Shown here: positions 4,098 to 37,596 of the stretch, in pieces
How the letters are laid out: each line of letters begins with the position of its first letter
Numbering within the stretch: the stretch's first letter is position 1
NCBI GenBank assembly: GCA_018302605.1
Contig: JAGVZN010000021.1
Span: forward strand, 14,157 to 78,156
Direction: 5' to 3'
Origin: Candidatus Woesearchaeota archaeon
GTDB lineage: Archaea; Nanobdellota; Nanobdellia; Woesearchaeales; GW2011-AR9
Length of the DNA: 64,000 bases
Made by a program: the position numbers and the translations under genes
Notes under the pieces: generated by a model
Seen by the model: the letters and a program-made list of their open reading frames with translations, nothing else
What the model was told of the DNA's origin: nothing
The model's database searches: none

Positions 4098-4136
4098 ACG
4101 AGAGATCTTGGAGAAGTCCGGCGTGCTGTGGTGTAG

Positions 4137-4177
4137 TAATTGTTTAGCAGATACAAGCTAGAAGGGCTAAACAATTA
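4137..4177. terminator. hairpin taattgtttagc-N17-gctaaacaatta after the GTPase gene
   Basis: 12-bp perfect inverted repeat immediately 3' of the stop at 4097; stem sequence resembles the family-2 TIR (tttgtttagc). Confidence 0.35.
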
Positions 4178-4236
4178 GGTAGAGCATAAAGATTTAAAAA
4201 TGATAAAAGTTTCCTTCCTTTGATAAAAGAGGTACT

Positions 4237-5049: not shown

Positions 5050-5102
5050 TTGAATTATTCAAACTTCTCTAAACAAATACCAGAAAAAGAAAAATCCATT
5101 AT

Positions 5103-11387: not shown

Positions 11388-12710
11388 TTATTCACGTCTA
11401 AACTCTTTAAACTTCTCCCCAAATACCTGCAACCCCGATGTCGATAACATCGCTTGACTATTACCAAACTGAACCATTGTCGGCTGTGGCAAGCCCTGTG
11501 CTAACTGTTGTAATGCCTGTTCCATCTGAGTAACCCTTGATAATAACTCCCTTTCTCTCTCTTGTGCTCTTTCGTCTATTCGAATTCCTGCTTCTAATGT
11601 AAGCGGAGACTTACATCTATCACAAAAGATGAGGATACTTTGATTTTGAAAATTACACCGTGGACAAATGCGAGGTTTTAATACATCCTCTTTTTCAGTA
11701 GTTTTCGGTTTAATTCCCTCTACTTCACAGTAAGCATCATCGATGTCCTTATCGCTGAGCTGGAGATAAACGCCCTCTAATGTTCTCGTTGTAATGCCAT
11801 GCCTTTTGGCATTCTTGACCAAATCAAAGCCCCTCCTTTGAAGATCCGTAATCGCAAAGTATCTTCCCATATGCCAGAAGAGATTTTTCTTGATTTCTGC
11901 ACGTTCCGCAATTCTTCGAATAAAAGCAGTATAGCCAATGGGTGACAGTTTCCTTGCAAACCAGCCGCCTTGTTCTTTACCAACAAATAAGGGTGCATCT
12001 CCATTCTTCCTGTCGGGATGATCTTTGTTAATCCACTCGCGTAAATACGGTACAGCTCGAACTAACCGAACAGAGCGTCGCTGAGATTTTGATACTTCAA
12101 TCCACACTTTACAGCCCATTTCGTCAAATTCAACATCGCTAAGCTTAACATTTGCAATCTCGTTAGCTCTACAACCCATTTCCACCCAGACCATAATCAA
12201 TGCTCGATCTCGATTACAGGAACAAATAGTAAGCATTCGCTCGATATCCTCAATAGTTGGCAAATCTGATGGCTTATGAGTTCCTTTAATCCTCTCCGGC
12301 TTTAATCGTTCATCTTCTACAACTGCCGGAAAGCCAGAACGCTCTTTAAATTGGTACAACCACTTGTAAAAAGATCGAATTATCACTTTTTTCACAGAGC
12401 GTGAAGAATCTGTTCTCACGTTACCAACAAATTCAATGATTTTCTGCTTATAAGCCTCAATCTCGGTATCGATGGGTTTAAACGGCATCTTGAGGGATAA
12501 GCCAAGTTCTCGGAGGCACAAGAGGGTATTGCGAATGGTCGAGGTTTTTATCCTACCACCGCGACTACTTGGCTTGTTTTCCAAGTACTCTTTAAAGAGG
12601 TTAAGTGCTTCCAACTGTTCCACAGAGAGTTTACCCCTCCATTTCGAGTTATGATGACCTTCGTCGAAGCCATTGGTCAAAATCTTCCTAATTTCTTCTT
12701 CTGAACCCAT
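11388..12710 (-). CDS. tyrosine recombinase / integrase with C-terminal zinc ribbon
   Basis: Catalytic region HMGRYFAITDLQRRG-x18-Y; arm-binding and core-binding regions; C-terminal CPRC-x13-CDRC ribbon and a coiled coil not present in archaeal XerA. Confidence 0.8.
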   Translation of the reverse strand: MGSEEEIRKILTNGFDEGHHNSKWRGKLSVEQLEALNLFKEYLENKPSSRGGRIKTSTIRNTLLCLRELGLSLKMPFKPIDTEIEAYKQKIIEFVGNVRTDSSRSVKKVIIRSFYKWLYQFKERSGFPAVVEDERLKPERIKGTHKPSDLPTIEDIERMLTICSCNRDRALIMVWVEMGCRANEIANVKLSDVEFDEMGCKVWIEVSKSQRRSVRLVRAVPYLREWINKDHPDRKNGDAPLFVGKEQGGWFARKLSPIGYTAFIRRIAERAEIKKNLFWHMGRYFAITDLQRRGFDLVKNAKRHGITTRTLEGVYLQLSDKDIDDAYCEVEGIKPKTTEKEDVLKPRICPRCNFQNQSILIFCDRCKSPLTLEAGIRIDERAQERERELLSRVTQMEQALQQLAQGLPQPTMVQFGNSQAMLSTSGLQVFGEKFKEFRRE

Positions 12711-16749: not shown

Positions 16750-17382
16750 ATGGTTCTGATCTTTGATTATGATGTTAGACAGGCGTTGAAAGATATTCAG
16801 ATTGTTGAACAGAAAGAGTTTGTCATCTCTGAACAACAACGCGAGAGCATGATCGAAGTATATGGCAAAGCCAAGTGGGCAGTCGTCGATATGTTGAATG
16901 AGCGATATTCTGCCCAGCAGGAAACACCTTTCGATCTCCACCACTGGCTTTCCGGAAATGAAGAAGATGAGGTGGCCTATTTTCTCAACGAAGCCGGCTC
17001 GAATGCCTTGAATTATGCAGAAGCGGGTGCGCCAGCAGCATTCCATCTCTGGCTGGGAAAGAAAGGATTTGTCATCGGCATCGAACAGCAAGGTGCGGGC
17101 TTTGATGCCAGACGTGTTCATCAGCTGCGGATTGCTCAGCATCAAGGCGGCGGATTTGATTTCTTCCGGAAATGCCAAGGGATCGTATTTTTTGACAAGA
17201 AAGAGAAAGCGAAAGTAATATATTTCCTGGGGAGAATCCAAAAGCATGATCGATCTTTTCAAGCTGATCGGAGCATTAGGGATTATGCTGATCTCCATTG
17301 GGATCGTCACCAAAAAGAGAAAGATACAGGATGTTTATTATATTCTGGTATTTGTTTAGCTTTTCTGGCTGGCCGTGAGTGA
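16750..17382 (+). CDS. GHKL-type ATPase domain protein (anti-sigma-factor / histidine-kinase-like ATPase)
   Basis: N-box NEAGSNALNYAEAG; G-boxes GFVIGIEQQGAGFD; last about 12 codons overlap a family-2 element. Confidence 0.5.
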   Translation: MVLIFDYDVRQALKDIQIVEQKEFVISEQQRESMIEVYGKAKWAVVDMLNERYSAQQETPFDLHHWLSGNEEDEVAYFLNEAGSNALNYAEAGAPAAFHLWLGKKGFVIGIEQQGAGFDARRVHQLRIAQHQGGGFDFFRKCQGIVFFDKKEKAKVIYFLGRIQKHDRSFQADRSIRDYADLHWDRHQKEKDTGCLLYSGICLAFLAGRE

Positions 17383-17511
17383 GAGCGGAAAATTGGTCGT
17401 GTTCTCCGCTTCAAGACAAGTCGTGGCTTGAACATTTTCCGCACAATAATCTTTAGCATAAAGCTCTTGTCTCACTCACATCTTGGCCCAGCCACCAGCT
17501 AAACAAATACC
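17347..17511. mobile_element. MITE-like element, repeat family 2, copy A (165 bp)
   Basis: TIR ggtatttgtttagc / gctaaacaaatacc; long internal imperfect hairpin (gtgagtgagagc / gctcttgtctcactcac). Confidence 0.6.
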
Positions 17512-17695
17512 ATTTCTGGAGGGGGGTCTGTTTAGAAATTTATAGTATTCGCATCGGTGATCTTATCTTCATCATCCTGCAGGTGATTTTTACGGCGGCG
17601 GCGGTCTACGATTTGGTTAAAGTTAAGATAAAAGCTGGTTCTTGACCAATTTCTTACCGAATATTTTATAACATTCAGCCCATAATTAACCGGCA

Positions 17696-18724
17696 ATGAA
17701 CTACATCATCAAACATCTCCCCGAAGATTTCATCGTCAAAGAGATCAGTCGCATCACTCCGCAGAAACAAGGCAGATACTGCTATGTCCTCCTGCGCAAA
17801 AGACAGCGGAATACGCTGGATGTGGTGCAGGAGATAGCCAGACAATTACACACTAAAGAAAAACAGATCGGCTTTGCTGGAAGCAAAGATCGGCAGGGAA
17901 TAACGGAACAGGTGATTTCCCTGGCTGGAACGGGAAAAGACAAGATCGCTGCGCTGAACCTGCGTAATGCCGAATGTGTCATCCTCGGCTATGGGAATAC
18001 GCCAATTACTTTGGGTGATCTGCAGGGAAATGCTTTTGAGATCGTCGTCCGTGATCTTCAAGAAGACATGGAGAAAGAGAATTTGGGCTTTTCCCCGTTT
18101 CTGGAAAACTATTTTGATGAACAGCGCTTTTCAACGCAGAATGTAGCGGTGGGGAAAGCCTTGATCCAAAAAGATTTTGCCGGAGCGGTACGATTGATCT
18201 CCAACACGGTCGGCCTTGCCCATCTCGACGACCATCCTGCTGATTTTGTCGGGGCATTGAAAAAAGTTCCTAGCCGCTTATTGCGGATGTACGTTCATGC
18301 GTTGCAAAGTGCGTTATGGAATCGGACGGCTGCTGCCTATTTGCAGCGGAAAGGCATACTGGAAAAGAGTATTGATTATTCGCAGGGAAAATTAGTGTTC
18401 GTGAAAGATACGCAAAGACTTTTGGGGATAAACATTCCGTTGGTTGGCTTTGGTGAACTGCCAACGGACGATGATGAAATCAAAGAGATTATCACCAGAT
18501 TATTGACTGAAGAAAAAATAGAGCAAAATAATTTTGTGATCAAACAAATTCCGGAATTGACTGTTGAAGGAGAGCTGCGTCAGTTGATCGTGCCAATAGG
18601 GAATATTGAAATCGGCAGCATCGAAGACGACGAAATATTTTTCGGGAAGAAAAAAATGAAAGTCTGCTTCACTTTGCCTAAGGGCAGTTACGCGACGATG
18701 GTTGTCAAGAAGTGGTTTGGGTAA
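17696..18724 (+). CDS. truD: tRNA pseudouridine synthase TruD/Pus7
   Basis: 342 aa; catalytic GSKDRQGIT (G-x-KD) motif typical of the TruD family. Confidence 0.65.
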   Translation: MNYIIKHLPEDFIVKEISRITPQKQGRYCYVLLRKRQRNTLDVVQEIARQLHTKEKQIGFAGSKDRQGITEQVISLAGTGKDKIAALNLRNAECVILGYGNTPITLGDLQGNAFEIVVRDLQEDMEKENLGFSPFLENYFDEQRFSTQNVAVGKALIQKDFAGAVRLISNTVGLAHLDDHPADFVGALKKVPSRLLRMYVHALQSALWNRTAAAYLQRKGILEKSIDYSQGKLVFVKDTQRLLGINIPLVGFGELPTDDDEIKEIITRLLTEEKIEQNNFVIKQIPELTVEGELRQLIVPIGNIEIGSIEDDEIFFGKKKMKVCFTLPKGSYATMVVKKWFG

Positions 18725-18736
18725 TGAAACCCCGAC

Positions 18737-18900
18737 CGGCTCTGGAGAAAAAGTCCTCCTGGTCATTGACCGCGGTGAAAACCAATTGTATTCAATGTTG
18801 CAGAACCAGCCATTTGATCTGATCGTTTTCGCACCTGTTCCCGGAGATCGCTTCCCCCGGTCAATCTTCAGGCCGGGCGGACGACTTTTTCTACTAGGCC
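18737..18900. mobile_element. MITE-like element, repeat family 3, copy 1 (164 bp)
   Basis: TIR ggctctggagaaaaagtc / gactttttctactaggcc; flanked by aaacccc on both sides; about 80% identical to the 21485-21647 copy. Confidence 0.6.
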
Positions 18901-18947
18901 AAACCCCACAGAATATTTATAAACTCTCTCTTCGTCAACAGAAAGAG

Positions 18948-19262
18948 ATGGAACAAAATAAAATTACCAGCCAAGAACGCTATATCGCCGCTTCTGCCTA
19001 TCTGTTTGATCTGGGCTATACGATAGCATGGTTAACCCAAGCAGAGTCTGATTTTACTCGATTCCATTTTGAACAAGAAAATAAAATCATCAAAAGAGTC
19101 CTCCTTCCGGGGCTCGCTGTTTTGTTTGGCGGAATTTTATGGGAAAGTATGGCTTCCAAGTACTTGATCTATGCCGGCGTGCTGATCGTTATTGTTTCCT
19201 TTTTCTGGATGATGGTTGGAGCATGGCATGCTTTAAAAGGCCGCAAGAAAAAAGTGATCTGA
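18948..19262 (+). CDS. small membrane protein
   Basis: Start taken at MEQNKITSQ (18948); the tracked ORF from 18702 translates the repeat element; 2 TM helices at the C-terminus. Confidence 0.4.
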   Translation: MEQNKITSQERYIAASAYLFDLGYTIAWLTQAESDFTRFHFEQENKIIKRVLLPGLAVLFGGILWESMASKYLIYAGVLIVIVSFFWMMVGAWHALKGRKKKVI

Positions 19263-19294
19263 GCGAGAAATAGGACGGTGTGAAACCCCAAAAA

Positions 19295-19450
19295 GTATTT
19301 GTTTAGCTGGCGGCAAGGCCAAGCGGTGTATCCGCAGAGACTTTGTTCCTAGCTAGATGCGGAAATCTTCTGGTTCATTGCGGGAGGCAGAAAATATCTT
19401 TGCTGATTTCCGCGCGGATACACGGTCAGCCGGAAAAGCTAAACAAATAC
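19295..19450. mobile_element. MITE-like element, repeat family 2, copy B (156 bp) with 9-bp target-site duplication
   Basis: TIR gtatttgtttagc / gctaaacaaatac; flanked by direct repeat ccccaaaaa (19286-19294) and ccccaaaaag (19451-19460); internal hairpin ggtgtatccgc / gcggatacacg. Confidence 0.7.
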
Positions 19451-19495
19451 CCCCAAAAAGTAAGCTTTTTATAGGATAGATCTTCTTTCTCTGCT

Positions 19496-20113
19496 GTGAT
19501 TGATGGGCTGACTGAAGAAGAGTATACTTTATTCCGCGGATTAAACACTCCGCAGAAGATTCAGGATTTTCTGGACACTATCCCCACCAATTTTGAGCCG
19601 GAAGGAGATACCTGCCTTTCGCCGCGGCTGGTACTCAGGCAGAACCGTGCGCATTGCATCGAGGGGGCGATTTTAGCGGCACTTATCCTGCGTTTCCACG
19701 GGCACAAGCCGCTGCTCGTCGATCTCGAGACGACAGAAGATGATTTTGATCACGTCATCGCCGTTTTCCAGCAACATGGGCATTGGGGTGCGATCTCCAA
19801 AACGAACCATGCCGTCCTGCGCTACCGTGAACCGGTCTATAAATCCATCCATGAATTAGTGATGTCTTTTTTCCATGAATATTTCCAGAATGAAAACGGC
19901 GTAAAAACGCTCCGCCGTTTTTCCAAACCGATCAATTTAAAAATATTTGATCAAAGAGGATGGATGACTGCGGAAACAGAAATATGGTATATCGCTGAAC
20001 ATCTGGCCGGCGCACCGCATAGTTCCCTCCTTTCCCGGAAACAAATAAAAACATTGCGGCCGGCGACCGATGTGGAACGGAGATTGGGCAGTATTGTTGA
20101 ATGGGAAAAGTGA
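19496..20113 (+). CDS. transglutaminase-like Cys/His domain protein
   Basis: RAHCIEGAILAALILRFHG ... DHVIAV resembles the transglutaminase-like G-x-C ... H-x-E/V core. Confidence 0.45.
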   Translation: MIDGLTEEEYTLFRGLNTPQKIQDFLDTIPTNFEPEGDTCLSPRLVLRQNRAHCIEGAILAALILRFHGHKPLLVDLETTEDDFDHVIAVFQQHGHWGAISKTNHAVLRYREPVYKSIHELVMSFFHEYFQNENGVKTLRRFSKPINLKIFDQRGWMTAETEIWYIAEHLAGAPHSSLLSRKQIKTLRPATDVERRLGSIVEWEK

Positions 20114-21484: not shown

Positions 21485-21647
21485 GGCTCTGGAGAAAAAG
21501 TCTCCCTGGCCATTGACCATGGCGAAAATCGGCCGTGTTCATGGCTACAAAATCGGCGATTAAAGTGGCTGGTTTTCGTACCTGTTCCCGTATATCGCTT
21601 CTCACGGTCAATCTTGAGGCCTGGCGGACGACTTTTTCTACTAAGCC
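21485..21647. mobile_element. MITE-like element, repeat family 3, copy 2
   Basis: ggctctggagaaaaagtc ... gactttttctactaagcc; flanked by tcaaac on both sides; the tracked ORF 21476-21667 is its translation. Confidence 0.6.
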
Positions 21648-28855: not shown

Positions 28856-28968
28856 GCCAGCGTCGCATAATCCGGTATTGCGCAGGTCTTGAATCCGCAT
28901 TCTGATTTCAGAACGCAGCACATCAACCTGTCCCTCTGGGATTCCCGGTTCGAATCCGGGCGCTGGCG
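28856..28968 (+). tRNA. tRNA-Ser(TGA), class II, with 31-nt canonical intron
   Basis: GCCAGCG ... CGCTGGC + G73; 3-bp D-stem; anticodon stem CAGGT / ACCTG with loop CTTGAA[intron]A; 13-nt variable arm TCCCTCTGGGATT; T-arm CCCGG-TTCGAAT-CCGGG. Confidence 0.7.
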
Positions 28969-37420: not shown

Positions 37421-37596
37421 ATTGGTGCTTCTGGCTCTGTAGAAAATCTCAAAAAAGTCAGCCTGGCCGTTGCCTTCGTGCTTCTCTAGATGCTTAGACT
37501 GTAGTTAAGAAGCACCAATAACTTCAGTTTATTGTAGTTCTCAGGCAACCTCTTGGCCAGGCGGCTGACTTTTTCTACAGAGCTGGTGCTTCTCCA
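37421..37596. mobile_element. MITE-like element, repeat family 3, copy 3
   Basis: ctggctctgtagaaaa ... agtcagcctggcc paired with ggccaggcggctgactttttctacagagc; outer arms ttggtgcttc / gaagcaccaa. Confidence 0.55.

Follow-up and report, generated by a model that had tools for sequence, protein, structure and literature searches.

The window, by which we mean the whole stretch of 64,000 nucleotides of DNA that was analysed, is archaeal and carries genes for SMC, TruD, TFIIB and a proteasome beta subunit as well as a tRNA that presumably bears an intron; its TruD protein is recorded under Candidatus Woesearchaeota. Near-identical contigs are found in aquifer and groundwater metagenomes. A short inverted-repeat element of 156 nt (copy 2, sub-lineage B) lies on the minus strand at positions 19295–19450, in the spacer upstream of a gene for a 205-aa protein that has a GTG start at 19496. 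At its left end copy 2 has the terminal inverted repeat GTATTTGTTTAGC (19295–19307, + strand), a 13-mer that is invariant in an alignment of 19 copies, and the repeat at its right end (19438–19450, − strand) reads GCTAAACAAATAC on the + strand. Both a direct reading of the sequence and a repeat finder give arms of 14 nt that are 100% complementary (19295–19308 and 19437–19450). The first-pass annotation had accordingly delimited the 156-bp unit and its inverted ends correctly. A perfect 9-bp direct repeat, CCCCAAAAA, flanks the element at 19286–19294 and 19451–19459, and the full context of the insertion is AAACCCCAAAAA-element-CCCCAAAAAGTA. Copy 2 lies 6 nt upstream of a TATA-box-like motif, TTTTTATA (19466–19473, + strand), which was read from the sequence about 23 nt ahead of the GTG codon and is a putative promoter element of the 205-aa gene.

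A second element of 163 nt (copy 1, sub-lineage A) is located 1.9 kb away at 17348–17510 on the + strand, inside a gene for a small membrane protein. Its terminal inverted repeats occupy 17348–17360 (+ strand) and 17498–17510 (− strand), and the repeat finder extends the perfect arms to 16 nt (17346–17361 and 17497–17512). By the same repeat finder, the two copies are complementary at their ends, over about 45 nt between the left of copy 1 and the right of copy 2 and over about 39 nt between the right of copy 1 and the left of copy 2. When copy 1 is compared with the reverse complement of copy 2, the two share 59% identity overall and 51% in the interior. They are members of one subfamily in opposite orientation, of which they represent sub-lineages A and B. 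The earlier description of a second copy at 17347–17511 with the same termini and a different interior therefore needs amending in one part: the copy and its termini are as described (at 17348–17510), but the interiors are related and fall in the same subfamily cluster. No ORF of 50 aa or more is present inside either copy.

The terminus GGTATTTGTTTAGC, with up to two mismatches, occurs six times in the window against an expectation of 0.43, a count reached by none of 100 shuffled sequences. A 43-nt mini-hairpin on the + strand (4136–4178) has the variant termini GTAATTGTTTAGC and GCTAAACAATTAG, with the same T-to-A change in both, and no flanking duplication; it is probably a family remnant that has been internally deleted. 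A solitary terminus-like sequence, GGTATTTGTTTAGA, with one mismatch, is found on the − strand at 5068–5081, 19 nt past the stop codon of a gene. Both are probably decayed members of the family, and they flank a conserved OapB/OapC gene pair. A third full copy, of sub-lineage B, lies on the same contig approximately 300 nt past the right end of the window (locus L121, 8724–8879, corresponding to about 64317–64472) and is flanked by the perfect 8-bp repeat AAAAGTTA. The contig itself thus holds three full copies within 47 kb.

Interruption of a small membrane-protein gene

Comparison with homologues shows that copy 1 separates the 5′ part of the membrane-protein gene (17246–17347, + strand; MIDLFKLIGALGIMLISIGIVTKKRKIQDVYYIL) from its 3′ part (17511–17645, + strand; HFWRGVCLEIYSIRIGDLIFIILQVIFTAAAVYDLVKVKIKAGS, followed by a stop). 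Joining the two parts yields a protein of 78 aa. Proteins of this kind are typically about 74 aa long, and the gene is confirmed as real by 80 homologues, mostly of 69–86 aa, of which 79 are 56–77% identical. Two of the homologues carry the source name lipid-A-disaccharide-synthase-like. Where the homologues read YYILGGICLE, the window reads YYIL-element-HFWRGVCLE. In the frame of the host gene, copy 1 contributes three codons and then a stop (TAG at 17357–17359), and it truncates a conserved small membrane-protein gene.

The flanks of copy 1 are TATTATATTCTG on the left and CATTTCTGGAGG on the right, and their sole common repeat is TTCTG(G). This repeat is degenerate: the left TTCTGG (17343–17348) overlaps the first G of the terminus, and the right one is at 17514–17519. 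To restore the host frame, 163 or 172 nt must be taken out, whereas an 8-bp duplication would predict 171 nt, and the original duplication at copy 1 is therefore not reconstructable. The insertion abuts a G run. In a related genome, JACQNE, the same gene contains a run of nine Gs that breaks the frame in three assemblies (locus L116, 4814–4842; also L117 and L118), and no gene is called there; the tract is either the mark of a pseudogene or prone to slippage. Given the G run at the insertion and the frame break in the relative, the gene may be decaying in this lineage.

Splicing of copy 1, or its persistence as an in-frame element, was considered and rejected in view of the stops in the host frame, the empty site in the relative and the transposon hallmarks of the family. 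In an ORF of 210 aa (16750–17382) that overlaps the membrane-protein gene, the stop codon that ends the 167-aa orthologue in L116 has changed from TGA to CGA near 17250; for the membrane-protein gene the change is synonymous. The ORF is 43 codons longer as a result and terminates at a TGA within copy 1.

Corresponding sites in the closest relative

The closest relative found is represented by contig JACQNE010000006.1 (L116), in which TruD is 86% identical and the gene order is the same. The site of copy 1 holds no element in this contig, and the small gene passes through it. At the site of copy 2, the relative has an element of 247 nt that is oppositely oriented and has GATAAAAA on both sides, and the TTTTTATA motif is again found 3′ of the insertion. 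Within each species the two flanking repeats agree, and they differ between the species in the same way (GATAAAAA versus CCCCAAAAA), so that these are two independent insertions at one spot. The position 6 nt upstream of the promoter-like box was thus hit independently in sister species. An empty site in a related genome, which had been proposed as a check on mobility, is therefore available for copy 1, but the site of copy 2 is filled by an independent insertion. Both sub-lineages are present in JACQNE, where the best matches to the two window copies are an element in L018 (90.9% identical to copy 1) and one in L045 (88.5% identical to copy 2).

All the same-strain assemblies contain both copies without polymorphism, and one metagenome scan for an empty site of each copy found none. 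These data thus give no direct sign of mobility within the species.

Distribution, target sites and subfamilies

The wider family was sought with the exact pattern ATTTGTTTAGC-N115–145-GCTAAACAAAT in one genome per species, which returned at least 108 loci holding at least 118 copies. Among the matches listed, the carriers are at least about 20 metagenome-assembled genomes (MAGs), nearly all of them labelled Woesearchaeota or unclassified archaeon; the suggestion that the termini should be found elsewhere is amply borne out by these copies in related archaeal genomes. Counts for single genomes, which are lower bounds, reach at least 25 copies in JACQXV and at least 18 in JACQNE. A few MAGs labelled Methanosarcinales, Thermoplasmatales or Thermoplasmatota have several copies each, the taxonomy here being as labelled. 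One copy (L029, 546–705) with GT...AC ends and a perfect 8-bp duplication, GAAATGGG, is found in an acidobacterium bin labelled Candidatus Angelobacter, on an 85-kb contig (QHVI01000047.1) that is either a mis-binned archaeal contig or a case of transfer. Matches in Streptococcaceae (L098) and Caldilineales (L106) look like unrelated palindromes. The single match among viral contigs (L120) was rejected as a chance hit with neither GT...AC ends nor a hairpin.

An 8-bp target-site duplication is perfect in 55 of 120 copies and has one mismatch in another 25, compared with 1 and 0 when the flanks are paired after shuffling. The 9-bp duplication first reported for copy 2 is perfect, but it departs from this norm of 8 bp; perfect 9-bp duplications flank 2 of the 120 copies, copy 2 among them. 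Approximately 100 of the 120 copies start with GT and end with AC. Most are 136–171 nt in length, and the rare longer elements of 247–372 nt have a composite look, with extra internal hairpin modules. Some copies abut the end of another copy, forming tandem or nested arrays (for example in L002, L004, L030, L035 and L103).

When 81 target sites are reconstructed, their logo is weakly palindromic, A-T-T-A / N-A-W-W-W-W-T-N / T-A-A-T, and insertion favours A/T-rich 8-mers in this context (ATTA-N8-TAAT). Most surviving copies lie between genes: of 74 reconstructed empty sites, 10 fall in an open frame that spans at least 100 codons, compared with 278 of 370 random positions. No convincing bias towards convergent or divergent spacers was detected, with 20 copies in convergent and 12 in divergent spacers, where the background holds 107 and 110 such spacers, respectively.

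The family comprises at least nine subfamilies with unrelated and mostly genome-specific interiors, and the 13-bp terminus is common to all of them. Copies that are 100% identical are found at separate loci in JACQXV and in CAZHIY, which points to recent movement. Several same-strain contigs end within the elements, as assembly repeats do.

Folding and covariation

Copies 1 and 2 fold, as + strands, with −68.5 kcal/mol (z −7.7) and −66.7 kcal/mol (z −5.9), respectively, and the z scores for the two copies on either strand lie between −4.9 and −7.7 relative to shuffled controls. The long hairpins that had been predicted for both copies are confirmed by these energies, which are far below those of the controls. 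In the 19-copy alignment of the subfamily found in the window (A3), standard pairs fill 97.6% of pair cells, and both sides have changed in 9 of 40 pairs. The covariation score of A3 is 0.165, compared with 0.064 for shuffles (none of 500 reaching the observed value) and at most 0.057 for slid partners, and one pair alternates between C-G and T-A within both sub-lineages. A second subfamily (A4), sampled from six genomes, shows compensatory change in 17 of 43 pairs, and its opposite strands fold with −32.8 and −30.8 kcal/mol.

By a tally of pair types, A3 contains five G-U pairs against seven A-C or C-A mispairs. This balance and the near-equal folding of the two strands indicate that the constraint is not strand-specific, which argues against a dedicated RNA. 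A strand asymmetry of G-U versus A-C pairs is not seen in A3; A4 seems to show one, but its opposite strand folds nearly as well, and the apparent bias is due largely to how the pairs were selected. The subfamily of cluster 7 has almost no fold beyond its termini (z −1.3), so the hairpin is common in the family and not obligatory. A plain MITE model does not require compensatory stem changes, and the covariation may reflect either selection on a folded intermediate or arm-to-arm correction. An Rfam search of 17200–19600 gave no match at E ≤ 1, and the only match at gathering score in the whole window was a tRNA.

Search for a cognate transposase

No transposase was found among the 30 ORFs of the window with Pfam and NCBIfam models (11 of the 30 are without any family match) or in the 10 kb on either side of it. 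The initial statement that the window contains no transposase holds for the ORFs scanned, and the copies themselves, read at the outset as non-autonomous, have no coding capacity. Pairs of termini 0.3–6 kb apart, with up to two mismatches, numbered ten in the fetched loci, and none is IS-like; the six longest, when translated, contain ordinary genes (e.g., aRF1 and ribosomal protein L19) or nested MITEs, and no transposase-like ORF. The 22 unpaired termini belong to truncated copies or lie at contig ends, and the ORFs beside four of them are not transposases. An all-against-all BLASTP comparison of 1048 ORFs from approximately 860 kb of fetched related loci recovered housekeeping orthologues only, and no repeated transposase. 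With the transposase of IS26 (Tnp26) as query, phmmer returned no match below E = 2.9 among the ORFs of the fetched DNA, a search of low sensitivity given that archaeal IS6-like enzymes share at most 25% identity with their bacterial counterparts (PMC6807381). The cognate IS that had been envisaged elsewhere in the genome was thus found in neither the window, its 10-kb extensions nor the roughly 860 kb of related loci.

Nature and mobilisation of the elements

Copies 1 and 2 are best explained as members of a non-autonomous, non-coding DNA transposon (MITE) family of Woesearchaeota with 13-bp termini (GTATTTGTTTAGC), a reading to which we assign a probability of about 0.9. The many copies, the significant duplications, the empty site for copy 1 and the absence of an Rfam match all agree with the non-autonomous MITE reading put forward at the outset. 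A transposase supplied in trans would bind both termini and insert the element at cuts that are staggered by 8 bp or, occasionally, by 9, and gap repair would then leave the flanking direct repeats. Movement could be either cut-and-paste or copy-in.

The compensatory pairing in A3 and A4, together with the strong folds, would also suit structured non-coding RNA genes or processing stems, or a regulatory hairpin such as a terminator, maintained for the fold and not mobile. We consider this highly improbable in the face of the signs of transposition, namely the 8-bp flanking duplications, the empty site and the independent, oppositely oriented insertion at the site of copy 2. The subfamily interiors are unrelated and the termini alone are conserved, structure is about equal on both strands, the cluster 7 subfamily is almost foldless beyond its termini, and copy 1 destroys a gene; the first-pass annotation had named such stems as the reading that would overturn its own, and with no Rfam family and no strand-specific structure the elements do not resemble them. 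Compensatory evolution of the arms and an element that is hairpin in its entirety are likewise what would be expected of REP/REPIN-like palindromes spread by an HUH enzyme (RAYT or IS200/IS605-type) acting on single-stranded hairpin DNA. That no DDE transposase was found favours such a route, as does the standing of IS200/IS605 as the most widespread IS family in archaea (PMC13343696). It is nevertheless very unlikely, with 80 of 120 copies having an 8-bp duplication at no more than one mismatch, a target logo that is palindromic about the 8-bp stagger, and ends that are set by fixed 13-bp terminal inverted repeats. It is well established that HUH-mediated insertion produces no target-site duplication. 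REPINs, for which compensatory arm evolution has been reported, resemble the present family as multi-copy intergenic hairpins of about 100–160 nt with co-varying arms, but they have neither target-site duplications nor DDE-style terminal inverted repeats and rely on a single-copy HUH gene, whereas the family described here has 8-bp duplications.

The inverted pair brackets 17511–19294, and a composite transposon that brought TruD and the neighbouring ORF to this place could be imagined from that arrangement; it is scarcely credible. Copy 2 has its own perfect repeat on both sides and was therefore inserted alone, the sequences just outside the pair (TATATTCTG and CCCCAAAAA) are mismatched, and the TruD synteny (SMC...TruD...SET...NYN) is kept in JACQNE, where the site of copy 1 is empty, and partly in JACOZP. 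The copies do bracket the TruD locus, as was first noted, but as separate insertions and not as a composite unit. A further variant, in which the hairpin is functionally required, would have a folded single-stranded form move or select the family, or would have the hairpin exapted as an RNA or DNA regulatory element, with the enzyme for the 13-bp terminus being an undescribed and possibly host-resident Woesearchaeota transposase. We think it rather improbable; if true, it would explain the compensatory stems in two subfamilies, the occurrence of one terminus with many interiors, and the lack of an IS with these ends.

On the MITE reading, the mobilising enzyme would be a transposase of the DDE type. 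Judged from terminal sequences and duplication length, an archaeal IS6-like enzyme may be named as the leading candidate, as a tentative lead only and with the odds against it. Like IS6/IS26 and the archaeal IS6-like elements, the family has 8-bp duplications, which are those of the IS6 family (PMC7986276), and short termini of 13–20 bp with G1 and TGTT at positions 6–9; the latter agree with the IS6 consensus GGTTCTGTTGCAAA at G1 and T6-G7-T8-T9. MITEs exist in the IS6 family (PMC7986276), and two are catalogued among IS6/IS26 and the archaeal IS6-like elements. The match to GGTTCTGTTGCAAA amounts to 7 of 13 positions, with no GG tip, no G10 and no caaa motif, although archaeal members are reported to deviate likewise, their termini often being without the GG tip and G10 (PMC6807381). 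IS26-type elements form cointegrates, which is not an obvious route for MITEs of 150 bp.

We judge it an even bet that the enzyme is not IS6-like, a refinement of the MITE reading under which it could come from another family with duplications of 8 or 9 bp (IS1595, ISL3, IS256, ISH6, the ISH1 group of IS5, or IS1) or be an undescribed and possibly host-resident single-copy transposase. The occasional 9-bp duplications (2 of 120) are atypical of IS6, the family termini are without the IS6 GG tip, and G is not enriched at the base ahead of GT, which is part of the duplication. Duplications of 8–9 bp are produced by IS256 and IS1. No IS6-like ORF was seen, and a gene of the DDE_Tnp_IS240 type was not found in the DNA searched here.

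Comparison with known elements and implications

Among prokaryotic MITEs, the Correia/NEMIS elements of Neisseria and the SM elements of Sulfolobus are alike in being short, non-coding, multi-copy and mostly intergenic hairpins with inverted termini and a duplication of fixed length. The present family differs from other prokaryotic MITEs in using one 13-bp terminus across at least nine subfamilies whose interiors are lineage-specific. Rickettsia palindromic elements (RPEs) are also palindromic mobile repeats that are sometimes found in protein genes. RPEs insert in frame and are translated within the host protein; copy 1, in contrast, brings stops in the host frame and causes truncation, and most copies of the family avoid genes.

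MITEs are well known in archaea. In a MITE-Tracker census, 88.9% of archaeal MITEs were intergenic, and a Woesearchaea genome was among the densest, with 105 MITEs per Mb (PMC11602168). The element is of an ordinary kind, and the family itself is not previously described in searchable text: no description of it, or of the terminus GTATTTGTTTAGC with an 8-bp duplication, was found there, and the terminus matched only unrelated papers.

The genomes of DPANN archaea are small and gene-dense, yet this MITE family attains tens of copies in a genome and breaks assemblies, and it is worth masking or flagging in MAG assembly, binning and annotation. The window offers a concrete gene knockout, that of a conserved small membrane protein, and a recurrent insertion hotspot beside a promoter-like box. 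The 13-bp terminus is usable as a marker of the lineage and for tracing the transposase, and the compensatory stems provide a small test case for why MITEs remain palindromic.

Other features of the window

A second, unrelated MITE-like family is also present, with elements of about 163 nt that have the termini GGCTCTGGAGAAAAAGTC and GACGACTTTTTCTACTA(G/A)GCC. Its copies lie at 18738–18900 and approximately 21485–21647, with partial matches at 365–380 and 37563–37578 and another match in L121 (104–254). The copy at 18738–18900 is missing from the orthologous spacer of L116, and the copy near 21.5 kb has an 8-bp flanking repeat, T(G/T)TCAAAC. Counting both families, four MITE insertions are thus found within 17.3–21.7 kb. 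The GGCTCTG tip of the second family looks even closer to the IS6 terminus.

A gene for a 440-aa tyrosine recombinase (Pfam Phage_integrase, E = 4.7e-13) is found on the − strand at 11388–12710, beside a gene for an Ig-domain protein. It edges a stretch of low GC content at 8–12 kb (0.37–0.39, compared with about 0.45 elsewhere), and this region with its recombinase may be an integrated element. The tRNA at 28856–28968 (+ strand, 113 nt), which scores 43.6 bits with Rfam and was missed by ARAGORN, presumably bears an intron and adjoins another low-GC stretch at 26–28 kb (GC 0.35).
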